From NCBI GenBank assembly GCA_038214755.1, contig JBBQRQ010000099.1, forward strand, positions 1-19,142: a stretch of DNA of 19,142 bases, written 5' to 3'. Shown piece by piece: positions 4,822 to 19,142 of this stretch. Source of the stretch: Verrucomicrobiota bacterium. Its GTDB lineage: Bacteria > Verrucomicrobiota > Verrucomicrobiia > Limisphaerales > CANJXF01. The translations under genes were made by a program, and so were the position numbers. Position 1 is the stretch's first letter. Each line of letters starts with the position of its first letter. The notes beneath the pieces are model-generated. The model worked only from the letters and a program-made list of their open reading frames with translations, was not told the origin of the DNA and did no database searches.

Positions 4822-5005
4822 CGTGGCCCCGGTGGAGAATTTTTAAGCCGACCCGCACGGACAAAGTGGTTGAGTGAGAGAGAATGAAACCAATTTCATG
4901 CAGGCCAAGGCGCGCTCGAATTTTTGCATTGGAAAAGATGTCACGCCGGCAACGCAGTGGCAAGCGGGGCGTTACCGCGTGGGTGTGATTTCAAGTGGCG
5001 GTCAC

Positions 5006-5156
5006 GTAGCGCAGGATTGCATCCTGCTGTATCGCCGGTTTGAAACCGGCTGAACGTCGCAAATAGAGAAAGTCTTTAGTTTCCGAAAGTCTCCCGTTCT
5101 GGCGGCATCTCGCAGGTTGAAAACCTGCGATACGGCAGGATGCAATCCTGCGCTAC
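5006..5156. repeat. GTAG-family REP doublet (REPIN-like), two ~45-bp inverted arms each with two internal palindromes
   Basis: Left GTAGCGCAGGATTGCATCCTGCTGTATCGCCGGTTTGAAACCGGC versus reverse complement of right arm GTAGCGCAGGATTGCATCCTGCCGTATCGCAGGTTTTCAACCTGC. Confidence 0.9.
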
Positions 5157-5186
5157 AACTGATCAACTGACCGCCAGTTCACACCC

Positions 5187-6230
5187 TTATCGCGTTGACC
5201 AGAAAAACGCCGGCCAAATTCCGGGAAAGCGCGAGGCGATGAGCAACAAGCACCCGAGTCCGGGATGAAACAAACCGGCCTGCAAATGGCGCGCCCAGAA
5301 AAGCCGCGCTTGAAACACTTCGTTGTAACGTCGCGCGAGATTTGTTTGCGCACTCTCCCAGGAAATTTCTCCAGAGCTGTACTCGGCCAGCGTTCCAACC
5401 GCCAGTTCCGCTGATTCAAAGGCCATCGACATTCCGTTTCCGGTGACGGGTGGAATCATCGTCAGCGAATCGCCGACACACATTTCCTGCGAGTCGTTGA
5501 AGCAACGCGGTTGGAGAGAAAGACCGGCCACGCTGCAAAAAGAATTTTCATCGAAGACCGCTGGGGCGAGTCGTGTTTCCAGCGCGGAGGCAGCGCGTCC
5601 GCGCAACCGGTCACGCCATTGGTTTGCCAGATCTTGCTCAGTTTTTCGGCTGCGAAACAGGCCGCAGATATTTACCTCGCCATGACTGAGTTGACATAAA
5701 CCGACGTAGCCGTTTTCGACGAAATGCATTTCTAAATCGGTTTCTAATTTCACATTTCGAGCGTGAACTTTCAGGCCAAAATAACGCCAGCCCGCCACGA
5801 CGCTCTCTCTGCGGCGACCGGTGGCGCGGACGAATCCTTCACCGAAAATTCCTTTCCACCGAGTGCTGGAATGCAATTGGCCGCCGAGTCTGGAAAACTC
5901 TTCCGCCAGCAAATTGTCCAGCGCGAAGCGTGAAATGCAGAGGGCAGGTTCGGGCAAATTTTTTTTGGGCGAAGAAATTTTGCCGGAGAAGAAAGCGGTG
6001 GTTTTTGCAACACGGGCTCCGGCGGAAATCAATTTCTCACCCAGACCGAGCCGGTTGAGCGAGCGTTGTCCGAGGCCGCTGATGAATTCGCCGCAAACGC
6101 GATGGCGCGGATATTTTCCCGCCTCAAAAAGTTCAACGGGAATTCCGCGTTGTCGCAAACCGATGCCCAAGGAAAGTCCCGCCAAACCTCCGCCGACGAT
6201 TGTGATCGGCTTGAAATCGCGAGAATTCAT
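5187..6230 (-). CDS. NAD(P)/FAD-dependent oxidoreductase (geranylgeranyl reductase/flavoprotein monooxygenase-like)
   Basis: Rossmann motif ITIVGGGLAGLS, YPRHRVCGEFIS, ISRFALD and VGDS..MIPPVTGNGMSMA. Start moved to MNSRDF (6230) because the ORF-track extension runs through a repeat. Confidence 0.85.
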   Translation of the reverse strand: MNSRDFKPITIVGGGLAGLSLGIGLRQRGIPVELFEAGKYPRHRVCGEFISGLGQRSLNRLGLGEKLISAGARVAKTTAFFSGKISSPKKNLPEPALCISRFALDNLLAEEFSRLGGQLHSSTRWKGIFGEGFVRATGRRRESVVAGWRYFGLKVHARNVKLETDLEMHFVENGYVGLCQLSHGEVNICGLFRSRKTEQDLANQWRDRLRGRAASALETRLAPAVFDENSFCSVAGLSLQPRCFNDSQEMCVGDSLTMIPPVTGNGMSMAFESAELAVGTLAEYSSGEISWESAQTNLARRYNEVFQARLFWARHLQAGLFHPGLGCLLLIASRFPGIWPAFFWSTR

Positions 6231-6276
6231 CGGGGCAAATCTAACAGGGATGTAAAAGATAAACAGAATGCAAACC

Positions 6277-6398
6277 GGAGTGCGGCGGCATGACGCCGCT
6301 TTTCCTGCACGCCTCTCTGGGAGATGAAGCTCTCGAACTCGCTTTAGCCGCTTTCTTTTTCCACCGTACAACCAAAGCGGGGACATGTCCCGCACTCC
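6277..6398. repeat. GGAGTGCG...CGCACTCC REP-like inverted doublet
   Basis: Left GGAGTGCGGCGGCATGACGCCGCTTT, right AAAGCGGGGACATGTCCCGCACTCC. Each arm is internally palindromic and the element is intergenic. Confidence 0.75.
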
Positions 6399-6410
6399 AC
6401 ATACGCCGCG

Positions 6411-8573
6411 CTACGCCCGGCGTTCCCGCGAGGAACGCACCGGTTTGGCCGCCAGTTTCATCGGCAAATATTTGGATTTCTGACGCGAATCCTTTGCGTG
6501 GTTTCCGTCTAACGCGCGCGAAAGTAATTCGCTTTGGCTGCGGTGCGTGACAGCGCCGCGCTTCAGACCCGCCCGCGAATAAAATCCACTCGCGTTGAGA
6601 ATTCGCGCTTTCACATTATCGTTCAGCGCAAGTTCCAAAATTTCATTCCGAATCCGCTCGCGCAAGTTGCCATCGAGGATCGGGAAAAGAATTTCGATGC
6701 GCCGAAAAAAATTGCGCGGCATCCAATCCGCGCTGCCGATAAAAATCTCCGGCTGACACGCGTTGTCAAAATAAAAGATCCGGCTGTGTTCCAGGAAACG
6801 ATCCACGATGCTGCGCACAGAAATGTTCTCGCTCACCCCTTTCATTTTTGGCCGCAGGCAGCAAATCCCACGAACGATCAAATCGATTTTCACCCCGGCC
6901 TGGGACGCGCGATAGAGCGCTTCAATCACTTCACGGTCCACCAGCGCGTTCATCTTGGCGATGATCCGAGCGGGCAAACCTTTCCTGGCATTCTCAGTCT
7001 CACGCTGGATGAGGGACAAAACTTTTTTGTGCAATTCAAAGGGCGCGACGAAAAATTTGCGGGTGCCTTGAAACTGGCAAATGCCGGTCAGCAAATTAAA
7101 AAGATTGGTCGCGTCTTCGCCAAAGTCTGCGCGGCACGTCAGCAGCCCCACGTCCGTATAAAATCGCGCAGTCGTCGGATTGTAATTGCCCGTGCTGAGA
7201 TGGACATAACGGCGGATGGCATCGTCATCTTTGCGCACGACGAGACACATTTTCCCGTGAATTTTGTAGCCGACCAAACCATAGACAACATGCACGCCGG
7301 CTTCTTCGAGTTTCTGCGCCCACAAAATATTATTGGCTTCGTCGAAACGCGCTTTGAGTTCCACGACGGCGGTGACTTGTTTTCCGTTGCGCACCGCGTC
7401 CATCAATGCGCCGACGATTTGCGGATCACCGCCGCTGCGATAGAGCGTTTGTTTGATGGCCAGGACATTGGGATCAGCGGCAGCTTGCGTGAGAAAATCG
7501 ACGACGCTGGAAAAATTTTCGTAAGGATGATGCAACAAAATGTCGCGCTCACGAATGGCTGCGAACAAATCTTTTTCCGTGCGCAAGGCCGCAGCGACCG
7601 GCGCGACGAAAGGCGGGTCGCGCAATTCGGGGGAATGATCGCCCTCGTAAATCGACATCAGCCGCACCGGGTTAAGCGGGCCGTCGATCACATACAAATC
7701 CCCTTCCTGGAGACGAAAATTTTCAAGAAGTTGGGCGCGAATTTCGAGCGGACAATCTTGTTCGACTTCGAGGCGGACGGCATCACCCCGGCGGCGATTA
7801 TGCAATTCATTTTCCACCGCCTTGAGCAAGTTCGCCATGTCGTCCTCGTCGATATACAACTCGCTATTGCGCGTAACTCGAAAATGCCAGTAGCCAAAAA
7901 TCTTCGTGCCCGGAAAAAGATCGCTCAGGTAATGGCCGATCAGATTTCCTAGAAATAAATAATCCTGCCGCGCATCGGTGCGAGGAAGTTTCACCAGACG
8001 CGGGAGCACCCGCGGCACTTGCACCACGGCGAGGCGGCGGCGGGTTTCTTTCGCCTGCACGATTTCCAGTTGCACGACAATATTGAGGGATTTGTTGAGC
8101 AGTTGCGGAAAGGGATGAGCGGGGTCAATGCCGAGCGGCGTGAGCACCGGACGAACTTCGGCGCGATAATAATTTTCGATCCAAGCGAGATCGGGTTTGG
8201 TTAATTCGGTGAAGTCGAGAAAGCGAACTCCATTTTCGGCGAGCGCCGGCAAAAGTTCTTCGCGCCAGCATTTATATTTTTGCTCGACCATTCGGCGAAC
8301 GCGTTGCGTCACGGCGCTGAGATTTTCACTGGCGGTCAAGCCATCGGCCGTCCGCTCCACCACGCTGCTTTCCACCTGCTGCTTGAGCCCGGCCACACGC
8401 ACTTCAAAAAATTCATCGAGGTTCGAGCAGGCGATGCAAAAAAACTTCACCCGTTCGAGCAACGGAGTTTTGGCGTCGAGCGCTTCATCCAAAACGCGCT
8501 GGTTAAATTCCAGCCAGCTCAATTCGCGATTGAGGAAATGTTGCGGGCCAAAAGTTGTCGGGACAGTTGTCAT
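6411..8573 (-). CDS. ppk1: Polyphosphate kinase 1
   Basis: FLNRELSWLEFNQRVL, SNLDEFFEVRVAGL, DPAHPFP, LLHHPY, KIHGK, STGNYN, DRFLEHSR, SADWMPRNF. Start taken at MTTVPTT (8573). Confidence 0.97.
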   Translation of the reverse strand: MTTVPTTFGPQHFLNRELSWLEFNQRVLDEALDAKTPLLERVKFFCIACSNLDEFFEVRVAGLKQQVESSVVERTADGLTASENLSAVTQRVRRMVEQKYKCWREELLPALAENGVRFLDFTELTKPDLAWIENYYRAEVRPVLTPLGIDPAHPFPQLLNKSLNIVVQLEIVQAKETRRRLAVVQVPRVLPRLVKLPRTDARQDYLFLGNLIGHYLSDLFPGTKIFGYWHFRVTRNSELYIDEDDMANLLKAVENELHNRRRGDAVRLEVEQDCPLEIRAQLLENFRLQEGDLYVIDGPLNPVRLMSIYEGDHSPELRDPPFVAPVAAALRTEKDLFAAIRERDILLHHPYENFSSVVDFLTQAAADPNVLAIKQTLYRSGGDPQIVGALMDAVRNGKQVTAVVELKARFDEANNILWAQKLEEAGVHVVYGLVGYKIHGKMCLVVRKDDDAIRRYVHLSTGNYNPTTARFYTDVGLLTCRADFGEDATNLFNLLTGICQFQGTRKFFVAPFELHKKVLSLIQRETENARKGLPARIIAKMNALVDREVIEALYRASQAGVKIDLIVRGICCLRPKMKGVSENISVRSIVDRFLEHSRIFYFDNACQPEIFIGSADWMPRNFFRRIEILFPILDGNLRERIRNEILELALNDNVKARILNASGFYSRAGLKRGAVTHRSQSELLSRALDGNHAKDSRQKSKYLPMKLAAKPVRSSRERRA

Positions 8574-8729: not shown

Positions 8730-9302
8730 ATGAAGACCAACACTGAATTCGGATATAACTCGAAAATCGAAGGCGACGTTGTTGTCACACGAGTCGATGC
8801 CGCGCTCAATTGGTTTCGCAAAAATTCTCTCTGGCCGATGCCGATGGGTCTGGCGTGTTGCGCGATTGAACTGATGGCGGCGGGGGCCAGTCGCTATGAC
8901 ATCGCGCGTTTCGGTTCGGAAGTCATGCGTTTTTCTCCGCGCCAATCGGACGTGATGATTGTCGCGGGCACGGTCACTTACAAAATGGCGCTTGCCGTCA
9001 AAAGAATTTACGACCAGATGCCGGAGCCGAAATGGGTCATCGCGATGGGCGCGTGCGCTTCGACCGGCGGGATGTATCGCAGCTACGCCGTTTTGCAGGG
9101 CGTGGACAATATTATTCCCGTGGATGTTTATGTGGCCGGTTGTCCGCCTCGTCCCGAAGCGCTGCTCGACGCGCTGGTTCGGCTGCAAAACAAAATCGGT
9201 GGTGAACCGATTCGTTATCGTCCGCGCGATTCTGAACTGGTGGCTGAAACGGCACAGCCAGGCACACCCAAACCGGAATTTGAAGTTACGACAAAACAAT
9301 AA
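8730..9302 (+). CDS. nuoB: NADH-quinone oxidoreductase subunit B
   Basis: [53 protein letters not shown] (N2 cluster ligands). Confidence 0.98.
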
Positions 9303-9360
9303 ACCACGAATGAACACGAATTCACACGAATGGAATGTGCTGGGTAGGTCGCGTCACTCC

Positions 9361-9532
9361 AAGACTGTCTCAAAACTTCAAGAGTCGCGACGATTTGCTC
9401 CCTCTCATCCATCGGATGGAGGAGAGGGCTGGGGAGAGGAGGCTTGTTTTGTCCAGAATTCCCCTCTCCTCGGTCCTCTCCCCATTCGTTCCTCATGGGG
9501 AGAGGAAGAAAACAAAGTTTTGAGACAGTCTC
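9361..9532. mobile_element. MITE (non-autonomous, ~172 bp) with 17-bp perfect TIRs and a 5-7 bp target duplication
   Basis: AGACTGTCTCAAAACTT (9362-9378) / AAGTTTTGAGACAGTCT (9515-9531). (TC)ACTCC is duplicated at 9354-9360 and 9531-9537. Ends resemble IS5/IS1182-type termini (inference). Confidence 0.82.
9400..9505. repeat. CCCTCTC...GAGAGGG palindromic repeat doublet inside the MITE
   Basis: Hairpins CCCTCTC..GGAGAGGG (9400-9428) and CCTCTCCCCAT..ATGGGGAGAGG (9475-9505), with GGGGAGAGG/CCCCTCTCC between them. Confidence 0.78.
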
Positions 9533-9629
9533 ACTCCGTGCGCGCCGTCCTCGTCTTGCAAACCAGCGGCGCGCACGGAGTGACGCGCCCTACCAATTCG
9601 TGTTCATTCGTGTCTATTCGTGGTTGAAA

Positions 9630-10304
9630 ATGAGTGCCATCGACTTAGCCCAAAAACTTCAGGCGAAATTCGGCGAATTGGTTTCTGCGCCAACGGAATT
9701 TCGCGGGGAAATCTCGATCACGATTTCCGATGCGGAAAAGATCGCGGACGTTTGCGCGTCCGCGAAAAAAGAACTCGGCTTTGATTATCTGGTCGATTTG
9801 AGCAGCGTGGATAATTACGGCGACGATCCGCGTTGGACGTTGGTTTACGAACTTTACGGCTACGGACATCGCGCGCATTTGCGTCTGAAAACCAGCGTCA
9901 GCGAGGAGAAATCCGAGTTGCCGACGATCAGCAATGTCTGGCGCACCGCCGATTGGCACGAGCGCGAAATTTACGACATGATGGGCATTCGTTTTCGCGG
10001 TCATCCTGATCTGCGCCGCATTTTGATGTGGGACGGCTATCCTTATTTTCCGTTGCGCAAAGATTTTCCGCTCGCCGGCAAACCGAGCGAAATGCCCGAC
10101 GTCGCTTTCACCAACAAAGCTCCGATGGAAGGCGGGCCATGGGTGACGATTGCAGGGGGCAAGGACACCATTGCTCGCGAGCCGCGCGTTCGCATTCCCG
10201 GAACCGACGCTTTGGAAACAACGAATCGCGTCGAACGCCGCACGGACATCAAAGATTTGCACGGCCATTCGCATGGGCCGGGACCGATTGAGAAGAAATC
10301 ATGA
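9630..10304 (+). CDS. nuoC: NADH-quinone oxidoreductase subunit C
   Basis: FRGEI, FDYLVDLSSVD, ADWHEREIYDMMGIRFRGHPDLRRILM, FPLRKDFP. True start is MSAIDL at 9630; the ORF-track extension is repeat-derived. Confidence 0.97.
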   Translation: MSAIDLAQKLQAKFGELVSAPTEFRGEISITISDAEKIADVCASAKKELGFDYLVDLSSVDNYGDDPRWTLVYELYGYGHRAHLRLKTSVSEEKSELPTISNVWRTADWHEREIYDMMGIRFRGHPDLRRILMWDGYPYFPLRKDFPLAGKPSEMPDVAFTNKAPMEGGPWVTIAGGKDTIAREPRVRIPGTDALETTNRVERRTDIKDLHGHSHGPGPIEKKS

Positions 10305-10429
10305 AGCTTGAAATCAAAGCGATTTGGGATGGAAAAGTTTTTATTCCGCTAGAGCCGGTGAACTTGAAACCGGGCACGAAAGTTAAATTGACTGTTACAA
10401 CTTTGCCAAAGCCAAAAAAAACGAAATGA
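10301..10429 (+). CDS. AF2212/DUF104-like antitoxin family protein, 42 aa
   Basis: Hand translation MKLEIKAIWDGKVFIPLEPVNLKPGTKVKLTVTTLPKPKKTK fits the IxAIYxxGVFxPLEPVxLxEGxxVxI pattern. ATGA overlaps at both ends. Confidence 0.78.
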   Translation: MKLEIKAIWDGKVFIPLEPVNLKPGTKVKLTVTTLPKPKKTK

Positions 10430-10746
10430 AAGAGATCAACGAAACTTTGCTGCAAACCGTCACGCAACGGCTGGTCGCTGAATTTCAACCTGAGCAAATC
10501 TGGCTTTACGGTTCACACGCATGGGGCAATCCCCACGACGACAGTGACGTCGATCTTTTTGTCGTTGTGCCAGAGAGCGAGGAGACGCCGATCTCCCGTT
10601 CGCAACGCGCGCATCGTTGCCTGCGCGGTTTGCGGATGCCGAAGGACGTATTGGTCGAAACCCGAAGTGAAGTGAATCGCGTTAAAGAATCTAAAACATC
10701 TCTGGAAAACACGATTTTAAGTCGCGGCAGGAGGTTATATGGGTGA
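10426..10746 (+). CDS. Minimal nucleotidyltransferase (MNT) domain protein, putative antitoxin
   Basis: IWLYGSHAWGNPHDDSDVDLFVV (GS-x10-DxD), 106 aa, directly upstream of a HEPN gene. Confidence 0.92.
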   Translation: MKEINETLLQTVTQRLVAEFQPEQIWLYGSHAWGNPHDDSDVDLFVVVPESEETPISRSQRAHRCLRGLRMPKDVLVETRSEVNRVKESKTSLENTILSRGRRLYG

Positions 10747-11164
10747 CGCGCCAATTTCCGATGAAAAAGCGTGGGTGACCAAGGCTTGGCGTGATTTGGA
10801 AACCGCGCGGCGTTCTGCGAATGGCGAACCGCCATTCTATGATATTGCCGTTTATCATTGTCAGCAGGCTGCGGAAAAAGCGGTGAAAGCTTTTCTCGTT
10901 TTTCACGACAAATCCTACGAGAAAACTCACGACATTGAAGTGCTGGTTGATATTGCCTGTGAGATTGATTCCAGTTTTAGAAATCTTTCAGAGGCTGCCG
11001 ACGTTTTGACTCCCTATGCGACAAGGTTTCGATATCCCAACGCGACATTTGCCATTGAGCCGACGCCGTCCGAATACAACGAAGCGTTGAAACACGCTGA
11101 GGCTATTTATTCTTTTGTGTTGAATCTGCTGCCGTCAGACATGCGACCTGACGAAGAGAAATAA
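10739..11164 (+). CDS. HEPN domain protein (COG2250-like), partner of MNT
   Basis: WVTKAWRDL, YHCQQAAEKAVKAFL, KTHDI, YATRFRYP. Confidence 0.92.
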   Translation: MGDAPISDEKAWVTKAWRDLETARRSANGEPPFYDIAVYHCQQAAEKAVKAFLVFHDKSYEKTHDIEVLVDIACEIDSSFRNLSEAADVLTPYATRFRYPNATFAIEPTPSEYNEALKHAEAIYSFVLNLLPSDMRPDEEK

Positions 11165-11168
11165 TTAA

Positions 11169-12452
11169 ATGGCAACCACTGAAGAAATTCAATTTCGAGA
11201 TCCCGCAACGCGTGTTGCGGCAGCGCAACCGATTTACTCTGCTCCGGTCACGTCGCCCAACCTGGATTTGCCCGACATGCAGACCGAGAAAATGGTTCTG
11301 AACATGGGGCCGTCGCATCCGGCGACTCATGGCGTGTTGCGCATTGTTCTCGAACTTGACGGCGAAATTATCACGAAGGCGATTCCCGACGTCGGTTATC
11401 TCCATCGCGGCGACGAAAAAATCGCCGAGAACATGACTTACACCCAGTTCATTCCTTATACGGATCGGCTGGATTATCTCGCGCCTCTCGCCAACAACGT
11501 CGCCTACGCGCTCGCCGTGGAAAAGTTGATGGGCATCGACCAACAACTTCCGCCGCGCTGCCAATATATCCGCGTGATTTGCTGCGAACTCGCCCGCATT
11601 TCCGCGCACTTGCTCGGTCTCGGTGCGTTCGCGATGGATGTCGGCGCGCTCACTGTTTTTCTTCACACGTTCACCGAGCGCGAAAAAATTTATAATCTTA
11701 TCGAAGCGCTGACCGGCGCGCGTTTCACCACGACTTACACGCGCATCGGCGGACTTGCGCGCGATTTGCCGCCGGGTTGGATTGAGCAATGCCGAAAATT
11801 TCTCGACGAAGTTGTCGTCAACTTTGATGAATCGGAAAAATTGCTCACGCGCAATCGCATTTTCGTTGATCGCACGCGCGATATTGGCGTGATTTCCAAG
11901 GAAGACGCGATCGATTTCGGATTGACCGGCCCGAATCTGCGCGGCTGCGGCGTCGATTACGATTTGCGCAAAGCGCATCCGTATCTTTGCTACGCCGATT
12001 TGGATTTTGAAATTCCGGTCGGCTCAGTCGGCGATTGCTACGATCGCTATCTCGTGCGCATGGAAGAAATGCGCCAGAGCGTTTGCATCCTGCGCCAATG
12101 CCTCGACAAACTTCCCGACGGCCCAATCAACGTTGCCGATGGCAAAATTGTTTTGCCGAAAAAAGATAAAGTCCTGACGAGCATGGAAGAATTGATTCAT
12201 CAATTCATTCTCGTCACGCAAGGCGTCAATGCACCGGTTGGTGAAATTTATTTCGGCGCAGAAAATCCGAAAGGAGAACTTGGCTTTTACATCAACAGCA
12301 AAGGTGGCGGCACGCCGAACCGAATGAAAATCCGCGCGCCATCGTTCGTGAACCTGAGCATTTTATCGCACCTGCTGCCGGGCCACATGATGAGCGACAC
12401 GGTGGCGATTCTGGGTTCGCTCGATTTCGTGATGGGAGAATGTGATCGGTAA
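11169..12452 (+). CDS. nuoD: NADH-quinone oxidoreductase subunit D
   Basis: LNMGPSHPATHGVLR, GYLHRGDEK, YTDRLDY, ENPKGELG, KIRAPSF, DFVMGECDR. Confidence 0.98.
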   Translation: MATTEEIQFRDPATRVAAAQPIYSAPVTSPNLDLPDMQTEKMVLNMGPSHPATHGVLRIVLELDGEIITKAIPDVGYLHRGDEKIAENMTYTQFIPYTDRLDYLAPLANNVAYALAVEKLMGIDQQLPPRCQYIRVICCELARISAHLLGLGAFAMDVGALTVFLHTFTEREKIYNLIEALTGARFTTTYTRIGGLARDLPPGWIEQCRKFLDEVVVNFDESEKLLTRNRIFVDRTRDIGVISKEDAIDFGLTGPNLRGCGVDYDLRKAHPYLCYADLDFEIPVGSVGDCYDRYLVRMEEMRQSVCILRQCLDKLPDGPINVADGKIVLPKKDKVLTSMEELIHQFILVTQGVNAPVGEIYFGAENPKGELGFYINSKGGGTPNRMKIRAPSFVNLSILSHLLPGHMMSDTVAILGSLDFVMGECDR

Positions 12453-12459
12453 ATAAAGT

Positions 12460-12765
12460 ATGCCGAAACTTTATGAGTATTTTGGATTGGTGGTGTTTTT
12501 CTATACGAATGAACACGAGCCGATTCATGTGCATGGCGAGTTTCAAGGCGGACATGCGAGAGCGGAAATTTTTTTGAAAGACGGCAAGATTTTGCGGATC
12601 GTATTCTCGAACGTCAGCGGAAAGCGGCCACTTGGCGGGAACAAGATGAAGGATTTCCGAACCTTGGTTCATGCGAAGTCGGATGACATCGTCCGGCGTT
12701 GGATTGAATATTTTGTGTTCAAGAAACACAACAAACCGGAAATCATCACCCGGAAATTGAAATGA
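12460..12765 (+). CDS. DUF4160 family protein, putative TA toxin
   Basis: MPKLYEYFGLVVFFYTNEHEPIHVH N-terminal signature; paired with a DUF2442-like gene. Confidence 0.88.
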   Translation: MPKLYEYFGLVVFFYTNEHEPIHVHGEFQGGHARAEIFLKDGKILRIVFSNVSGKRPLGGNKMKDFRTLVHAKSDDIVRRWIEYFVFKKHNKPEIITRKLK

Positions 12766-13022
12766 AAACGCAAACAACAATCTATCTGGAAATCACGGAG
12801 GCGAAATATGTCTCCGGTTACAAAATCCGCCTGACCTTCAACGACGGAATGGTTCATCTCATGGATTTCGAGCCGTTTTTGCGAAAGGCCATGAATCCCG
12901 ACATCACGAAGTATCGGCAGCTTCGGAATTTCAAAAAGTTTCATCTGCATTACGGCGATCTGATGTGGGGCAATTTTGAAATGATTTTTCCCACCTCAGA
13001 TTTGTATCGCGGAGAAATTTGA
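12762..13022 (+). CDS. DUF2442 family protein, putative antitoxin
   Basis: ITEAKYVSGYKIRLTFNDG, DFEPFL, GDLMW, DLY; ATGA overlap with the DUF4160 gene. Confidence 0.86.
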   Translation: MKTQTTIYLEITEAKYVSGYKIRLTFNDGMVHLMDFEPFLRKAMNPDITKYRQLRNFKKFHLHYGDLMWGNFEMIFPTSDLYRGEI

Positions 13023-13067
13023 TTTTGCTGCGCAACTTTGGATTAAAACTAAAAAAAGGAAAATTAT

Positions 13068-13430
13068 ATGCCTGATCAAATTGTTTGGTGTGACATTCCA
13101 GTGAAAGACCTCGACCGCGCGATCAAATTCTACAGCGCGGTTTTCGGTGTGAACGTAGAGAAACAATCCTTCGGCGACATGAACATGGGCGTCTTGCCGC
13201 ACGCGGGAGAAAACGTGAGCGGATGTCTCGTGGTAACGAAAGAGGCAAGGCCTTCCGCTGATGGCCCGCTGATTTATTTGAATTGCGAAGGTCGTCTCGA
13301 TGCTGCGGAAGCCGCCGTCGAAAAGAACGGCGGAAAAGTTTTGCAATCAAAACATCAGATCGGGCCGTACGGATTTCGCGCGGTGGTTGTGGACAGCGAA
13401 GGCAATCGTGTCGCGCTGCACTCGAAATAA
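13068..13430 (+). CDS. VOC family protein (glyoxalase/bleomycin resistance)
   Basis: VWCDIPVKDLDRAIKFYSAVFG, GGKVL, GFRAVVVDSEGNRVALH. Confidence 0.93.
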   Translation: MPDQIVWCDIPVKDLDRAIKFYSAVFGVNVEKQSFGDMNMGVLPHAGENVSGCLVVTKEARPSADGPLIYLNCEGRLDAAEAAVEKNGGKVLQSKHQIGPYGFRAVVVDSEGNRVALHSK

Positions 13431-13432
13431 TT

Positions 13433-13675
13433 ATGAAACCCGTTGCTGAGATGACATCTGATGAAAAAGCGCGAGCAATGATCTGTATCAATGCCTGGAA
13501 ACGCGCTGGCCCCGAATTGGAAAAGATGCGACGCGACGACATACGCCGCGCAGATACAGCCAGTTCAATTCCTGCCTTTGACGGATTGTTCGAGAATGCC
13601 GTGCGAAATTTTCCTCCCAAGCCCACCTCGGGACTGGTGCAGCAACAACATTTCTTCCTGCGGGCAAAAAAATGA
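13433..13675 (+). CDS. Small helical protein, 80 aa, putative antitoxin/partner of the downstream nucleotidyltransferase
   Basis: ATG 2 nt after the VOC stop. WKRAGPELEKMRR and SGLVQQQ..F segments; ATGA overlap with the next gene. Confidence 0.72.
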   Translation: MKPVAEMTSDEKARAMICINAWKRAGPELEKMRRDDIRRADTASSIPAFDGLFENAVRNFPPKPTSGLVQQQHFFLRAKK

Positions 13676-14244
13676 CACGGCTTGTAAAACTGGCGGCGGA
13701 GATACAGCAGCTTCTCGATACGGAAGGATGGAAGAATTGTTTAATCGGCGGTTTGGTGCTGCAGAGATGGGGCGAACCGCGATTAACGAAAGACGTGGAT
13801 TTGACGGTGTTGACGGGTTTTGGCGGAGAGGAAGAAGTGGTGGATTTATTGATGGCGCGTTATTCGGGCCGACGACCCGACGCGCGCGATTTTGCGTTAA
13901 TAAATCGAGTGTTGTTAATCCAGTCATCCGATGGCGTTGGGATAGATGTGGCGCTTGGGGCATTGGATTTTGAAGAACGGGTGATGGAACGAGCGAGCGG
14001 CTTTGACTTTTTGCCGGATTGCAGAATGCGGACGTGTTCAGCGGAAGATTTTGTGGTGATGAAAGCATTTGCCAATCGTGACCGCGATTGGCTGGACGTG
14101 GAAACCGTGTTGATTCGGCAAGAGAACACATTGGAATGGAAACAGATTATCAGAGAATTAAAGCCGCTCTGCCTGTTGAAAGAATCGCCGGACATCGTGC
14201 CACGCCTTGAGAAATTGCGTTTGAAAATTATTGACCAGGATTGA
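13672..14244 (+). CDS. Nucleotidyltransferase-superfamily protein (AbiEii/DUF6036-like putative toxin)
   Basis: LIGGLVLQRWGEPRLTKDVDL (GG..R.T.DxD), SAEDFVVMKAFANRDRDWLDV. Confidence 0.85.
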   Translation: MTRLVKLAAEIQQLLDTEGWKNCLIGGLVLQRWGEPRLTKDVDLTVLTGFGGEEEVVDLLMARYSGRRPDARDFALINRVLLIQSSDGVGIDVALGALDFEERVMERASGFDFLPDCRMRTCSAEDFVVMKAFANRDRDWLDVETVLIRQENTLEWKQIIRELKPLCLLKESPDIVPRLEKLRLKIIDQD

Positions 14245-14245
14245 A

Positions 14246-14731
14246 ATGAGTTTCGTTGTTCCAGCCGAATTAGAAACCGAGTTGAACGAACTCGTGACGC
14301 ATTATCCGCAAAAGCGGAGCGCATCGCTGATGTTCCTGCACGCGATTCAGGAACATTTCGGCTACATCTCAAAAGACGCGATGGAGTGGACGGCGGCGAA
14401 ACTCGAATTGCAGCCGATCAATATTTACGAGTTGGTCACGTTTTATCCGATGTTCCGTCAGGAACCGGCGGGCAAATATCAAATCAAAGTTTGTCGCACC
14501 TTGAGTTGCGCGTTGGCTGGCTCTGGGAAATTGCACAAACATTTTTGCGAGAAATTTGGATTGGATTCCCACGCGCACGGCGTGCAAACGGGCAAAGACG
14601 GAAAATTCTCCGTCGAATTTGTCGAATGTCTGGCGAGTTGCGGCACCGGCCCGGTGATGATGTGCAACGAAGATTTTTACGAAGCAGTTACGGATCAGCA
14701 GGCGGATGAAGTTGTGGAGAAATGTAAATGA
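14246..14731 (+). CDS. nuoE: NADH-quinone oxidoreductase subunit E
   Basis: YPQKRSA, VTFYPMF, VCRTLSC and VECLASCG (2Fe-2S N1a ligands). Start taken at MSFVVP (14246). Confidence 0.97.
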   Translation: MSFVVPAELETELNELVTHYPQKRSASLMFLHAIQEHFGYISKDAMEWTAAKLELQPINIYELVTFYPMFRQEPAGKYQIKVCRTLSCALAGSGKLHKHFCEKFGLDSHAHGVQTGKDGKFSVEFVECLASCGTGPVMMCNEDFYEAVTDQQADEVVEKCK

Positions 14732-15204
14732 AGAAGCCTGCGCTATATCTTGAAACGTCGGTCGTCAGTTATCTGGTGGCGCGCCCTGCTCCAGATTTGA
14801 ACACCGCCGCGCACCAGCAAATAACGGTCGAATGGTGGGACACCAAACGAAAGAACTTCGATATTTACATTTCGAAAGTGGTGTGGAACGAGGCCGCGTC
14901 AGGCGACAAGGAAGCAGCGGAACGCCGACTCAAAATTTTGAAACCGCTACGAATGCTGCCCTTGAATCGCGAAGTTTTCTCGTTGGCCCGATCTTTTGGC
15001 GCGGCGGGTTGTGTTCCCCTCAAGGCAGCGGATGACGCCATTCACATTGCCTTGGCGGCGGTGCATCGCATTCACTTTCTGTTGACCTGGAATTGCACGC
15101 ACATCAACAACGTGGCGACGATTGAAGAAATCAGGAAGGTTTGCGAGAGTCACGGTTACAATTGCCCGGTCATTTGCACGCCGGACGAATTGATCCGAAT
15201 TTGA
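14728..15204 (+). CDS. PIN-domain (VapC-like) toxin
   Basis: LYLETSVVSYL, ISKVVWNEA..GD, DAIHIALA, LLTWNCTHINN, PVICTPDEL. Confidence 0.92.
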   Translation: MKKPALYLETSVVSYLVARPAPDLNTAAHQQITVEWWDTKRKNFDIYISKVVWNEAASGDKEAAERRLKILKPLRMLPLNREVFSLARSFGAAGCVPLKAADDAIHIALAAVHRIHFLLTWNCTHINNVATIEEIRKVCESHGYNCPVICTPDELIRI

Positions 15205-15207
15205 ATT

Positions 15208-15384
15208 ATGAAAGATCCAATTGTTCAGGAAATTCGAAAAATCCGCGACACGCACGCCGCGAAATTTAATCACAACTTTGACGCCATCGCAGAGGATTGG
15301 TTGAAAGAACAGGCCGCCGCAAAGCGCGCCGGACAGAAATTCGTGGATTTATCTACGAAGGCGAATGCAAATCGGAAATCGTAA
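15208..15384 (+). CDS. Small protein, 58 aa, putative downstream antitoxin of the PIN toxin
   Basis: Hand translation MKDPIVQEIRKIRDTHAAKFNHNFDAIAEDWLKEQ...; DPIVxEIRxIR-type N-terminus; starts 3 nt after the PIN stop. Confidence 0.78.
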   Translation: MKDPIVQEIRKIRDTHAAKFNHNFDAIAEDWLKEQAAAKRAGQKFVDLSTKANANRKS

Positions 15385-15398
15385 ATGAAGAATTTGGT

Positions 15399-15472
15399 TG
15401 ATGTGCCACGAAGATTTTTACGAAGCGGTTTCGAATGAGAAGGCGGAGGAGATTGTGGACAGTTGCAAATGA
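15399..15472 (+). pseudogene. nuoE: Diverged duplicate of the last 74 bp of nuoE
   Basis: 61/74 nt identical (hand count, no gaps) to 14658-14731. Encodes MCHEDFYEAVSNEKAEEIVDSCK* versus MCNEDFYEAVTDQQADEVVEKCK*. Confidence 0.92.
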
Positions 15473-15907
15473 AATTTCCGCTTAATCCGCTGAACTTGTT
15501 GCAGGAGTCGGCAATTCGCGTGGCATTAAGTGAAGCGTGGAAAGAATCAAAGCCCGCCTCAACAGGCGGTCACGAAGAAGGCGGCTTTATCGTTTTGGGC
15601 CATGAGGGAAAGGTCAGTGTGCGGGCCTTGGCGGAAAGGCGAAGGAAATTTGATTCGAGGGCCAGAACACGCCGAATGCGCGGTGGGAGGATGGGCGATT
15701 GTTGCCACATTTCACACTCATCCGAATATCGGGATGGATTTTTTGCAAGAACCGAGTGAGACGGACAAGCGTGGCGTGCGAGAGGATGCGAATTTGAAAG
15801 GCGCGCTTTATATCGGCGAGTTTGTGATTGCGAATGAGACAATTTATTTAATTACGCCCAGCGGCACGATTCGCGAAATCGGCACGCGCGCTGAACTGCT
15901 TCGCTGA
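15469..15907 (+). pseudogene. JAB/MPN-like (Tox-JAB/DUF4329-like) gene split by a +1 frameshift
   Basis: One frame gives MKFP...HEEGGFIV...VR and the next gives PWRKGE...VATFHTHPN...PSETD. Removing one G from GGG at 15623-15625 yields one ORF with the E...HxH...S..D motif. Confidence 0.75.
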
Positions 15908-15917
15908 GAGAAAATCT

Positions 15918-16184
15918 ATGGACATGACATTGACCAAAGAAGATCTGACTGACGAATTCGTCGTCTCATTGGCGCACATTCTCGCCATAGCCAATCGCCG
16001 CGCGCGACAACTGGGCTGCGATGTTTCGCAAAGCCGTGTCACCATTTCGCAGCATTTTGAGGGCGACTCTTTTTGGCGGATCAATTATGGCGCAAAAAAT
16101 CCGATTGCCCAACGTGGCGGGGATTTGATCGTCGAGGTGAACGCGGAAAATGCGGAAGTGAAACGTGTCTTGCGAGGACAATGA
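15918..16184 (+). CDS. Hypothetical protein, possible NTF2-fold immunity protein
   Basis: 88 aa, intact. C-terminal WRINYG...RGGDLIVEVNAENAEVKRVLRGQ; lies directly downstream of the JAB-like gene. Confidence 0.65.
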   Translation: MDMTLTKEDLTDEFVVSLAHILAIANRRARQLGCDVSQSRVTISQHFEGDSFWRINYGAKNPIAQRGGDLIVEVNAENAEVKRVLRGQ

Positions 16185-16201
16185 GCCAAGGCCAATGCGA
16201 C

Positions 16202-16232
16202 TCGTAAATCGTAAATCAAAAATCGTAAATCG
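16202..16232. repeat. Heptamer tandem repeat (TCGTAAA)n, about 4.4 copies
   Basis: TCGTAAA TCGTAAA TCAAAAA TCGTAAA TCG; a shorter relative occurs at 15369-15386. Confidence 0.8.
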
Positions 16233-16236
16233 AATT

Positions 16237-16310
16237 TGGCTGCCCGACATGGATTTGAACCATGACAAACAGATTCAGAGTCTGTTGTGCTACCGTTACA
16301 CCATCGGGCA
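16237..16310 (-). tRNA. tRNA-Gln(CTG), CCA encoded
   Basis: TGCCCGA/TCGGGCA acceptor stem, G73, CCA; anticodon arm ACAGA-CTCTGAA-TCTGT; T arm CATGG-TTCAAAT-CCATG; 74 nt. Confidence 0.97.
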
Positions 16311-16325
16311 GACCGGAGCGGGTCA

Positions 16326-16353
16326 AAGGTAAAAGATTGGTTTTGAGAGTCAA
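16326..16353 (-). promoter_or_regulatory. Candidate sigma70 promoter of tRNA-Gln
   Basis: Minus strand TTGACT (16353-16348), 16 nt, TACCTT (16331-16326), 15 nt upstream of the tRNA 5' end. Confidence 0.55.
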
Positions 16354-16443
16354 GTTTAGTGCTGGTAGCTGCGTCTCGTGAGAGCGCGGACTGACTGAAA
16401 ATAAAAGCCGCGTTGTCACCCACGCAGCCACATTGAAAATAAA

Positions 16444-17871
16444 ATGCCGCAACAACATCGGCTCATTTTAAAAAATATCGACGCGCCAGGTTACACGAAC
16501 GATCTCGATTGTTACGTGCGCCACGGTGGCTACGATGCTTTGAAAAAAGCCTTCGAGATGGGCCCGCGCATTTCGCCCGACGGCGGCACGGTGAGTGGTC
16601 CCGAAAAGATTCGCAAAACCGTTTTGGAATCGGGATTGCGCGGACGCGGCGGCGCAGGTTTTTCGTGCGGATTGAAATGGTCGTTTGTTGATCGCAAGAG
16701 CGGCAAACCGATTTATCTCATCTGCAACGCCGACGAATCCGAGCCGGGCACCTTCAAAGATCGGCAGATCATTTATAAAGATCCGCATCAGTTGATCGAA
16801 GGGATGATCATCTCCTGCTACGGGAACGATGTTCATCTCGCTTACATTTATATTCGCGGCGAATTTCCCGAAGGCGCGCGCATTTTGAAACGCGCATTAG
16901 CTGAAGCGAAGGCGAAAAATTTCCTCGGAAAAAACATTCTCGGCAGTGATTACGATCTGGAAATTTACATTCATCGCGGCGCGGGCGCTTACATTTGCGG
17001 CGAGGAAACCGGCCTCATCGAATCGCTTGAAGGCAAACGCGCTTATCCGCGCATCAAGCCGCCGTATTTTCCGGCAATTCTCGGCCTCTACATGTGTCCG
17101 ACCATCGTCAACAACGTCGAGACGCTTTGCCACGTGAAACACATCATCACGATGGGCGGCGCGGATTACGCGAAGCTCGGCACGCCGAACAACACCGGCA
17201 CGCGCATCGTCAGCTTGAGCGGCCAGGTGAAAAAGCCCGGCTATTACGAAATTGAAGTCGGCAAAGTCACTATCGGCGAATTGATCAATCACGAAAATTT
17301 CGGCGGTGGTTTGCTCGACGGTCGAAAATTAAAAGCCATTATTCCCGGCGGTTCTTCCGCGAAAGTTTTCAAAGCGGGCGAAAAATTTAAGCTCAAGAAA
17401 AAAGGCGCTGACGGCCAGATGACCACCGTCGAAGTGGACATGCTCGATTTGCCTTACGATTTCGATTCACTCCAGGCCGCCGGCAGCATGTCTGGTTCGA
17501 GCGCGATCATCGTGATGGACGACAGCGTGGACATCGTCGAAGCGCTCGCGAACCTCAGCGAATTTTACGCGCACGAAAGTTGCGGCCAATGCACGCCCTG
17601 CCGCGAAGGTTCGCTTTGGATGAGCAAAGCGCTCCATCGCATGACGCACGGCGAAGGCCGCAAACAAGACGCCGATTATTTAATCAACATCGCGCAAAAT
17701 ATCCAGGGCCGAACGATCTGCGCTTTCGGCGAAGCCTGCGCGTGGCCGGTGTTGAGTTTTGTGAAAAAATTTAAAGACGAATTCGAAGCCAAAGGTGCCG
17801 CCGACGAATCTCGCAACAAAGGCGCTGGCCCAACAAGCGAAATGAAAATCGCGGCCAGCCCGCAATTTTGA
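16444..17871 (+). CDS. nuoF: NADH-quinone oxidoreductase subunit F
   Basis: SGLRGRGGAGF, NADESEPGTFKDR, GAGAYICGEETGLIESLEG, NNVETL, ESCGQCTPCREG, TICAFG. Confidence 0.98.
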   Translation: MPQQHRLILKNIDAPGYTNDLDCYVRHGGYDALKKAFEMGPRISPDGGTVSGPEKIRKTVLESGLRGRGGAGFSCGLKWSFVDRKSGKPIYLICNADESEPGTFKDRQIIYKDPHQLIEGMIISCYGNDVHLAYIYIRGEFPEGARILKRALAEAKAKNFLGKNILGSDYDLEIYIHRGAGAYICGEETGLIESLEGKRAYPRIKPPYFPAILGLYMCPTIVNNVETLCHVKHIITMGGADYAKLGTPNNTGTRIVSLSGQVKKPGYYEIEVGKVTIGELINHENFGGGLLDGRKLKAIIPGGSSAKVFKAGEKFKLKKKGADGQMTTVEVDMLDLPYDFDSLQAAGSMSGSSAIIVMDDSVDIVEALANLSEFYAHESCGQCTPCREGSLWMSKALHRMTHGEGRKQDADYLINIAQNIQGRTICAFGEACAWPVLSFVKKFKDEFEAKGAADESRNKGAGPTSEMKIAASPQF

Positions 17872-17883
17872 TTTAATTATTCT

Positions 17884-18120
17884 ATGATTACCACAGCCCT
17901 TAAAATATGTATCGAAGCCCTGAGTCTGCCCCGCAAGTCACGGGCCGACCTTGCCCACCGTCTGCTGGTGAGCCTCGAAGATGAGCCAGCTGCGCCGGAA
18001 ATTGAGGATGCCTGGAAGAACACAGCCGAACGTCGCTTTGAAAATTTGAAAAAAGGCCAGACAACCGGTCGCGATGCGAAAAAAGCTGTGCGAGAGGCGC
18101 GCAAACGGCTGGCGAAATGA
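17884..18120 (+). CDS. Addiction module antitoxin component (TIGR02574-like)
   Basis: EALSLPRKSRADLAHRLLVSLE, IEDAW..AERR; upstream of a RelE/ParE gene with ATGA overlap. Confidence 0.88.
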   Translation: MITTALKICIEALSLPRKSRADLAHRLLVSLEDEPAAPEIEDAWKNTAERRFENLKKGQTTGRDAKKAVREARKRLAK

Positions 18121-18419
18121 GAGTGATTCTCGAACGCGAAGCCGACCAGGAAATGGTTGAAGCAGCGCAATATTACCATGAACAACAGCCCGAACTCGGT
18201 TCCGATTTTTTGGACAAGGTGGATTCAGCAATTGACAAGATTGCTTCCAACCCGCTTCGCTGCGCTTTTTATCGAGGCTCAAAGTTGGTTCGCAGCATTC
18301 GCATGGAACGCTTTCCCTATCGACTTTTGTTCGTGGTCGAGCCGAGCCGGATTTCGGTTGTCGCTGTCGCCCACCTTCATCGCCATCCCGATTTCTGGAA
18401 GCAGAGACTCCCTCAATAA
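18117..18419 (+). CDS. Type II TA RelE/ParE family toxin
   Basis: EADQEMVEAAQYYHEQQPELGSDF, RFPYRLLF, VVAVAHLHRHPDFW. Confidence 0.92.
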   Translation: MRVILEREADQEMVEAAQYYHEQQPELGSDFLDKVDSAIDKIASNPLRCAFYRGSKLVRSIRMERFPYRLLFVVEPSRISVVAVAHLHRHPDFWKQRLPQ

Positions 18420-18421
18420 CG

Positions 18422-19142
18422 ATGTCCACAGCACCAACAACTGAAACCAAACCCGCACCGCCGCCAGTCGATAAGATGAAAATCAAAATCGACGGGCGCG
18501 AAATTGAAGTGCCGAAGATGATGCCGGATTGGCAGGGCAAACCTCAGCCCACGACCATGCTGCAGGCTTGCGCGCTCGCCGGTCACGACGTACCGCATTA
18601 TTGTTATCATCCAAAATTGCCCATCGCCGGAAATTGCCGCATGTGCCTAGTTGAATTCGGCACGCCTGCGATGGGACCGGATCGCAAACCCGTTCTCAAC
18701 GAAGATGGCTCGCCTAAGATTGCGAAATCCGTTTTGCCTTACGAACCGACTTCGGCCCGCGGCGCGATTGCCTGCGCCACGCCGATTTCGCCCGGCATGG
18801 AAATTTATCCGAACTCTCCCGCGACCAAACAAATGCGCGAAGCGGTTCTGGAATCGCTGCTCATCAATCATCCGCTCGATTGCCCGATTTGCGATCAGGC
18901 TGGCGAATGCAAACTGCAGGAATATTCCGTCGATCACGGAAATGCGGGCAGCCGCTTCGTCGAAGAAAAAGTTCACAAACCCAAGCACGTTGATCTCGGC
19001 CCCCGCATCGTTCTCGACGACGAGCGTTGCATTCTCTGCTCGCGCTGCGTTCGTTTCACCAAAGACATCGTCGGCGACGACGCGCTCGGTTTCTCACAAC
19101 GCGGCAGCCATAACACGCTCACGAATTTTCCCGGCAAAACGT
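18422..19142 (+). CDS. nuoG: NADH-quinone oxidoreductase subunit G, N-terminal part (truncated by the window end)
   Basis: Hand translation: IKIDGREIEV, HYCYHPKLPIAGNCRMC, IACATP, HPLDCPICDQAGECKLQ, ERCILCSRCVRF; no stop before 19142. Confidence 0.96.
   Translation, partial: MSTAPTTETKPAPPPVDKMKIKIDGREIEVPKMMPDWQGKPQPTTMLQACALAGHDVPHYCYHPKLPIAGNCRMCLVEFGTPAMGPDRKPVLNEDGSPKIAKSVLPYEPTSARGAIACATPISPGMEIYPNSPATKQMREAVLESLLINHPLDCPICDQAGECKLQEYSVDHGNAGSRFVEEKVHKPKHVDLGPRIVLDDERCILCSRCVRFTKDIVGDDALGFSQRGSHNTLTNFPGKT

Follow-up and report, generated by a model that had tools for sequence, protein, structure and literature searches.

How do chromosomal toxin-antitoxin (TA) pairs without an adjoining transposase or integrase reach their sites? 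The question is raised by a stretch of verrucomicrobial DNA, here called the window, which is the whole of contig C99 of genome G000 (GCA_038214755.1, JBBQRQ010000099.1, 1-19,142), and of which positions 8730-19142 were studied. This part carries the complex I genes nuoB to nuoG, and 14 accessory open reading frames (ORFs), all on the + strand, are spread over four of the nuo junctions. The closest named nuoE loci belong to Verrucomicrobiota metagenome-assembled genomes titled Limisphaerales, Pedosphaera or Verrucomicrobiales. An earlier reading of the letters, the original prediction, took the accessory genes for an integrase-free array of promoterless cassettes, in which the nuo genes act as recombination arms and supply transcription. 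The phenomenon is real, broader than first described and mechanistically well constrained. What is seen at nuo is variable cargo in sense orientation, a lock of cargo families to certain junctions, stubs of displaced gene ends, a donor flank, and swapped tails at nuoE and nuoF. We put the probability that the nuo junctions are hotspots of the minimal-mobile-element type, grown by gene-end displacement, at about two in three.

Displaced gene ends at nuo junctions

The nuoE/nuoF (E/F) junction holds, at 15399-15473 on the + strand, 74-75 nt that duplicate the 3' end of nuoE at 83% identity and run by a stop/ATG overlap into the next ORF. This copy was overlooked in the original prediction, as was an inverted-repeat element in B/C. 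The working nuoE is 85-95% identical to the two closest loci until its last 60 nt, where the identity falls to 77% and 65%. Between -46 and -21, agreement with the six closest loci is more frequent in the stub than in the working nuoE, and the last ~46 nt of the working gene are probably derived from a donor, while the stub would be the displaced end of the resident gene.

Right before the stub, 15358-15400 on the + strand consists of a short spacer of tandem words together with the first 6 nt of a tRNA-Gln 3' end, and a like arrangement is found behind the PIN partner in the related locus L085. The PIN gene of the window is 82% identical to that of L085 and 76% to that of L036. The L085-like flank before the stub argues that the insert is a piece of the nuoE-PIN-partner-tRNA locus of another lineage, and the flank and the stub together argue that other lineages supply the cassettes from their own copy of this locus. 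At its far end the insert meets the resident nuoE at position -74, overlapping it by 2 nt, in what is probably an illegitimate joint.

A blastn search gave clear stubs at eight nuo junctions: E/F of the window, F/G and L/M of L131, and one junction each of L083, L123, L039, L111 and L132, the last being double. All eight copy the end of the adjacent gene; their start points differ (-36, -153 and -157 for nuoF) and both polarities occur. The reversed control gave one weak, non-adjacent match. Non-adjacent matches of 24-40 nt were discarded as artefacts, and so were the single-query matches F3_L056, C3_L046 and C3_L049, where the annotated end runs into the cargo. Double stubs, a 5' piece of the next gene directly followed by a 3' piece of the upstream gene, were found on contigs C25 and C141 of G000 and at C/D of the unpublished genome G009 (L132), and the C25 site is empty in G001, G005 and G007. 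Such an arrangement would be expected if allelic loci exchange unequally. In L111 (4030-4344) a DUF2442 ORF starts with a stub of the nuoG 5' end, possibly a fusion through displacement.

Cargo of related loci and stubs across the genome

The junctions were surveyed in 81 loci, namely the window, L131 and 79 of 80 related loci, and 16 were added later to make 97. L091, with its many frameshifts, was omitted, and L031, L032, L034, L037 and L040 were omitted from pooled counts. Junctions of at least 450 nt made up 22/74 at E/F, 22/69 at F/G, 5/78 at D/E, 4/64 at C/D, 8/56 at H/I and 0/65 at B/C. The medians are 1-30 nt except at E/F (178 nt), where a tRNA is always present; most relatives are empty, and L031 has an empty E/F site. 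Pfam matches were obtained for 82 of 215 sense junction ORFs as compared to 1 of 85 antisense ORFs (counted by hand; 85 of the 90 antisense ORFs went to Pfam), and in the 97 loci all 107 cargo-family matches were sense.

Alignment of the related loci, as had been proposed, revealed cargo that varies between relatives and between co-occurring strains, with more than 15 mutually different types. TA pairs, Uma2, GxxExxY nucleases, restriction-modification (RM) pairs, AAA ATPases and RAYT are found, and also VOC, SMR and an L12-like protein, because of which the cargo is not TA only. RM pairs were found only at F/G of L069, L080 and L118. The C/D cargo recurring in L054, L055, L062, L063, L107 and L038 is a ~90-aa protein with a domain like the C-terminal one of ribosomal L7/L12. 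The commonest E/F cargo is a ~200-aa family with a 66-aa partner (L064:10496-11098 and 11 other E/F junctions); the family has no Pfam or NCBIfam match and looks nucleotidyltransferase-like by eye.

Most families are locked to one junction. Of the nucleotidyltransferases (NTases), NTase200 was at E/F in 12/12 and NTase190 at D/E in 6/6; PF09720 was at F/G in 9/9, RAYT at H/I in 7/7, VOC at D/E in 5/5, the AF2212-like family at C/D in 3/3 and DUF2442 at F/G in 11/13. On a FastTree phylogeny of NuoD+E the carriers are scattered, and about as many changes are needed as with shuffled labels: 11 for the 12 carriers of NTase200 (shuffled 11.3), 10 for 10 of DUF2442 (9.6) and 8 for 8 of PF09720 (7.7). 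For most families cargo identity does not track host identity, and between distant hosts cargo can be closer than the cores (DUF2442 88% compared to 81% for NuoD+E, NTase 87% compared to 79%). The PIN of the window is 82% identical to that of a host at 81%, but only 52% to that of a host at 97%. Gene tails change with the cargo: the median drop in tail identity was 0.166 in 33 pairs with differing cargo as compared to 0.044 (88 pairs) for nuoE, and 0.43 in 63 such pairs as compared to 0.07 (39 pairs) for nuoF. A role of the nuo genes as recombination arms is supported, indirectly, by these tails and by the cargo not following the host.

TA density in this part of the window exceeds the genome background, as expected in the original prediction: six TA-type families have 116 matches in G000, and 5 of them are in these 10.4 kb, with 0.24 expected, in a stretch that was picked for its density. 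One other 10.4-kb stretch, on contig C115, has 6; TA matches are most crowded in the genome at C115:7589-15393 (6 in 10 kb). The nuo cluster of the dominant strain, chosen after the fact, has 8 matches in 24 kb with 0.54 expected. For comparison, there is one insert in atp, and only inserts of 85-360 nt in the stretch behind rplB. The atp insert, between atpA and atpG (L179:8509-9063, contig C10 of G000), is a 184-aa ORF without an NCBIfam match and is missing at the same place in G001 and G005; the cluster behind rplB (C34:30990-46089) has, as compared to G001, eight inserts of 85-140 nt and one of about 360 nt. Other genomes have fewer TA-type matches (G007 56, G003 49, G005 38, G001 6), and G001, with merely 6 against 116 in G000, is of the same genus and 97% complete.

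Stubs were also sought genome-wide at gene ends that face an interval of 250-5000 nt, using gene calls made for this analysis. A stub accompanied 59 of 2590 gene ends in G000, with 0 in reversed controls, and the rate was sevenfold higher beside TA matches (18/166) than elsewhere (41/2424). The process that leaves stubs is genome-wide and nuo is one hotspot of it. At a higher score 58 were kept, of which 53 lie 269-1870 nt from their gene (criterion at least 250 nt). These comprise 38 3' and 15 5' stubs, with a median identity of 84% (at least 97% in 4 of the 53) and a median insert of 716 nt; 37 have only co-oriented cargo and 7 only opposite cargo. The hosts are housekeeping genes, serS, gltX, aspS, mutS, ftsK, nadA and lipA among others, and the cargo includes HigBA, RelE, ParE, MazF, PIN, MNT-HEPN, DUF433-DUF5615, DUF4258-DUF2283 and TumE. 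That such a scaffold would be special to complex I is not supported, as the same scars lie beside about 50 unrelated housekeeping genes. A deoC-like gene has stubs with differing starts in G000, G005, G006 and G007, and in G003 there is no insert at this site. None of the 91 stub-cargo ORFs of G000 belonged to an integrase or transposase family. PF00589 has 5 matches in this genome, none of them on C99 or C2, and the array also has no recurring inverted repeat (no attC model was run), in agreement with the prediction of an array free of integrase and attC.

Gene content, strains and promoters of the window

Pfam matches lie where the original prediction had placed its families (nuoB-G, AF2212, MNT, HEPN, DUF4160, DUF2442, VOC, NTase, PIN, PF09720 and ParE), and its count of co-oriented accessory ORFs was correct. 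On the + strand, nuoB (8730-9302, PF01058) is followed by a nested inverted-repeat element, REP/MITE-like and without assigned strand, that fills B/C (9302-9625) and whose DNA fold has a z of -14; the hairpin inside it, 9531-9595, is repeated on more than 15 contigs. Behind nuoC (9630-10304, +, PF00329) come an orphan AF2212-like ORF of 42 aa (10301-10429, +, PF01954) and an MNT-HEPN pair (10426-11164, +; MNT 10426-10746, PF18765/PF01909; HEPN 10739-11164, PF05168), whose MNT scores under the MntA equivalog cut-off. Next to nuoD (11169-12452, +, PF00346) are the DUF4160-DUF2442 pair (12460-13022, +; families by Pfam), a VOC/glyoxalase singleton (13068-13430, +, PF00903) and an 80-aa ORF with a DUF6036/AbiEii-like NTase (13433-14244, +); the Atlas matches of the 80-aa ORF are unnamed clusters, all below 0.9. 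The E/F junction behind nuoE (14246-14731, +, PF01257) begins with the PIN toxin-like gene (14728-15204, PF01850) and its 58-aa partner (15208-15384), together 14728-15384 on the + strand. Beyond the stub it holds a JAB-like gene (15469-15907, +) that is frameshifted near 15625 and an 88-aa ORF (15918-16184, +) of a conserved unnamed family with a homolog at E/F in L089. The tRNA-Gln(CTG) at 16237-16310, listed without a strand in the original prediction, is on the minus strand, divergent from nuoF (16444-17871, +). A PF09720 antitoxin with ParE (17884-18419, +) and nuoG (18422-19142, +), truncated at the contig end, complete the stretch.

ATGA overlaps are present at 10301, 10426, 12762, 13672, 14728 and 18117, and gaps of 4, 1 and 2 nt precede nuoD, nuoE and nuoG, all as described. 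The proposed spacing of 1-12 nt holds at most joints; it fails before VOC (45 nt), the JAB-like gene (84 nt) and nuoF (259 nt). The JAB-like gene is split in two frames, its N half 51% and its C half 56% identical to the intact relative P0001, and its Prok-JAB match falls under Pfam's cut-off; of the proposed JAB gene with an immunity-like neighbour there is left a broken gene and, for "immunity-like", an Atlas lead at 0.87 only. NCBIfam gave no match over its cut-off for the cargo of the window. PF09720-ParE, MNT-HEPN and DUF4160-DUF2442 are the adjacent toxin and antitoxin families; the partners of PIN and of the NTase have no family assignment. At 1-144 the window has a 140-nt repeat that is also found at the ends of contigs C12, C23, C47, C61 and C110, probably an unassembled multi-copy element. 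Contig C42 of G000 (4282-8394) carries a second, distant nuoB/C/D-like cluster (NuoD 49%, NuoB 59%).

An independent assembly of run X1, which may be the source sample yet was assembled separately, matches 9801-11428, 11489-12272 and 12245-16741 letter for letter (0 differences; depth 21-24). Because these contigs match exactly, the stub included, the C/D, D/E and E/F arrays are real. The same bin has a second nuoF and nuoG on contig C2, 93% and 91.5% identical, with different F/G cargo. Past 16741 the dominant X1 contigs carry the C2 alleles: they have 23, 19 and 22 differences from the window, the exact counts of the C2 differences there. An exact match to the F/G module of the window exists in run X2 alone, where the depth is about 5. 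Most likely the window fuses two strains inside a 48-nt identical stretch of nuoF (16704-16751), and its F/G module, a minor-strain allele, probably belongs to a co-occurring strain, but a true recombinant subpopulation may be present instead. Chimeric assembly, which the original prediction named as a ground for rejecting it, is in other words probable for the F/G part, and the other three junctions are intact in X1. X1 also has a contig of depth 4 in which VOC is joined straight to nuoE. The order on C2 is nuoF-Uma2-stub-PF09720-ParE-PF09720-nuoG-DUF2283-nuoH-RAYT-nuoI-J-K-L-DUF1016-stub-MNT-HEPN-nuoM-N, where ParE is a 98-aa ORF with a GTG start that matches ParE. The two sympatric strains have nuo genes about 92% alike and different cargo.

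A scan of the window for sigma70 sites and terminators gave 10 sites, as compared to 7.0 +/- 3.2 by chance. Tails before cargo have a median sigma70-like score of 3.2 bits (n=145), empty ones 3.8 (n=463) and stand-alone TA starts 6.5 (n=59). Most TA modules of G000 are not tightly coupled; the 11 TA starts that are score 3.5, like operon-internal genes (4.5) and below the 59 stand-alone starts. The matrix has low power: it passes only 14% of divergent starts and misses the promoter of nuoB itself. That tails before cargo score like empty ones weakly suggests that the nuo cargo is promoterless, and that part of the original prediction keeps this much support. The antisense tRNA-Gln between nuoE and nuoF has a good sigma70-like site of its own and probably splits the nuo cluster into two transcripts. 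The E/F cargo lies between nuoE and the 3' end of this tRNA, which is probably the end of a transcript.

Mechanism, alternatives and known systems

The displacement that we propose would begin in some lineage with a small co-oriented gene or TA pair that lodges just after the stop codon of a nuo gene, an origin that was not observed. DNA of the same locus would then enter another cell and recombine with the resident nuo gene, a step that is a strong inference. Two homologous crossovers would replace the junction allele and swap the gene tail. One homologous crossover together with one illegitimate joint, that is, homology-facilitated illegitimate recombination (HFIR), would insert the donor tail, the cargo and a piece of the donor's downstream flank ahead of the resident gene end, which would persist as a stub heading the older cargo, so that arrays lengthen stepwise. 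In a compact essential operon the survivors would be those with joints in the last 40-230 nt of the gene or in old cargo. The operon promoter would read through into cargo that overlaps the stop codon, and cargo would decay into frameshifts and orphan halves, or disappear when its allele is replaced or when gene end and stub recombine. The longer persistence of addictive pairs would bias the load to TA. That nuo is the most heavily loaded would be due to its many arms, which are long and highly conserved and have free tails (nuoE, nuoF), and cargo would spread between lineages by allelic exchange. We propose that the cargo is mostly selfish or transiently useful and not a designed respiratory switch.

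Several observations weigh against this mechanism. A stub is detectable in only about 8 of the 145 cargo junctions of at least 200 nt, and the DUF4160-DUF2442 pair of the window is at D/E and not at its usual place in relatives, F/G, which implies that non-allelic moves occur too. The change counts on the tree cannot separate gain from loss, and VOC, the L12-like ORF and PF09720 track host identity (Spearman 0.64-0.67), so that cargo may partly be inherited. No tail drop is seen at nuoD, nuoI and nuoK, and the tail pairs are not independent. A few of the 53 genome-wide stubs may be decayed paralogs (one of 447 nt, one of 375 nt at 62%). ComEC is present in 8 of 9 genomes of the genus, but alone it does not show competence. 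Informative-site tests at seven sites mostly reflect stub decay and fit a circular intermediate too. Homologous recombination is, according to PMC5361080, more frequent than the illegitimate route by orders of magnitude.

In such a circular intermediate, gene end and stub would recombine to excise a small circle that carries the cassette and the host gene end, and after its transfer one crossover would insert it elsewhere into the same gene end. This resembles unconventional circularizable structures, and gene end, cargo and stub do form a unit flanked by direct repeats. At the deoC-like gene, G005 has the same cargo and the same stub start (-59) as G007, but related cargo in G000 has another start (-141), and a shared stub also fits inheritance or allelic transfer. 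Stub sites near the joint often differ from the relatives, which can be alignment overrun or decay, and the repeats are merely 84% identical (median); we regard the circle as unlikely. Doubtful to a similar degree is an adaptive respiratory scaffold, in which the host keeps promoterless TA and defence genes in nuo so that their expression tracks respiration and the array resists deletion. All cargo is sense with tight overlaps, tails before cargo show no sigma70-like enrichment, and nuo is loaded far above atp or the ribosomal cluster. However, survival within an operon alone would demand sense orientation, most relatives have empty junctions and alleles that are exactly empty exist, G001 does with 6 TA-type matches where G000 has 116, the cargo decays, and the tRNA probably divides the cluster in two. 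Excerpts of a Photorhabdus study report TA gain with mobile elements, no protection of neighbours and no conservation of TA neighbourhoods (PMC13617665).

An ancestral, fully loaded operon with differential loss would account for the junction lock and for the host-tracking families (VOC, L12-like, PF09720). It is very improbable in view of cargo that is more alike than the cores between distant hosts, the more than 15 mutually different types, the stubs and the swapped tails. An integrase or RAYT/REP transposase acting in trans and specific for gene ends is hardly more credible. RAYT is found at H/I and REP-like hairpins at B/C, and the duplicated gene ends look like phage attR remnants, but the targets are dozens of unrelated genes, in both polarities and with variable starts, no joint motif was seen by eye, double stubs occur and no integrase is nearby. 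That the entire array is a mixed-strain assembly artefact, for which the probable switch in nuoF and the two nuoF/nuoG copies in the bin could be cited, can practically be dismissed in view of the exact independent contigs over C/D, D/E and E/F, with the stub, and of modules that recur at their own junctions in many independent assemblies.

Gene-end displacement would offer an answer to the opening question. About fifty dated scars in one genome and a donor flank at nuo make an enzyme-free route testable on a large scale by a simple stub search. Foreign tails on essential genes would be the price of the cargo, and a core operon would act as an exchange site across families. A more far-reaching idea, to which we give little credence, is that nuo is an enzyme-free cassette bank of the order, whose junction-locked TA and defence modules pass from family to family on the tails of nuo genes, and where promoterless modules set addiction against pop-out and a drop in nuo transcription fires the toxins. 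If so, each insertion would create its own pop-out repeat and addiction would keep the module in spite of it. Promoterless coupling would link toxin release to respiratory transcription: in anoxia or phage shut-off the antitoxins would run down and the toxins fire, with respiration as trigger of dormancy or abortive infection. This coupling of toxins to respiration is a long shot. The literature covered, which excludes most subscription journals, has nothing on TA cassettes in nuo or housekeeping operons, or on stub-leaving TA insertion at such a scale.

Integron cassette arrays likewise consist of small co-oriented and often promoterless genes, TA among them. They differ from the nuo array, which has no tyrosine integrase beside it and whose cassettes are interleaved with core genes; no recurring inverted repeat was found between the window cassettes, most joints being 1-12 nt, in a comparison that did not include an attC model. 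The minimal mobile elements of Neisseria, reportedly described by Saunders and Snyder in 2002 and Snyder in 2007, are closer. In them variable genes between fixed conserved flanks are swapped by homologous recombination of the flanks after uptake by natural transformation, and recombination is reported in 11 of 14 nuo genes, according to the sections used of PMC3787668. The nuo junctions are alike in having variable genes between fixed flanks and no mobility gene of their own, except for the RAYT cargo at H/I. As for recombination of the flanks, the signs are indirect: tails swap at nuoE and nuoF and not at nuoD, nuoI and nuoK, and cargo is discordant with the host. They differ in that the cargo is mostly TA and defence, cargo is exchanged across the families of an order, almost any junction of one operon may serve as a site, and displaced stubs record the growth of the arrays.

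Insertion with long target duplication (Furuta 2010, PMC2853133), as far as the relevant parts of that paper go, has in common with our sites long variable direct repeats, often over a start or stop codon, a host gene left whole, the lack of a mobile element and, in one case, a place in an operon. Here too the repeats exceed 30 bp, the inserts are below 20 kb, no other mobile element is present, and relatives have empty sites (E/F in L031, the C25 site, and the deoC-like site in G003). The inserts there are R and M genes and here TA cargo, and the repeats there are nearly identical (44-47 of 46-47 nt in rows of Table 2), compared to 83% in the window and a median of 84% here. Nine cases among 760 locus pairs stand against about 50 in one genome, and the donor is here traced to an allelic locus. 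The sequential displacement of type VI secretion system (T6SS) effector-immunity and Rhs modules by HFIR, in the portions of PMC5361080 that treat it, also has an upstream anchor, the new module first and old parts downstream, and it combines stepwise arrays with ordinary allelic replacement. A resident remnant downstream of the new module, with variable joints, is what we find as well, and the 2-nt overlap at one joint, that of the nuoE stub, may be microhomology. The difference is that here an essential gene, respiratory or housekeeping, serves as the anchor and has its tail replaced, and that the cargo is unrelated to it.

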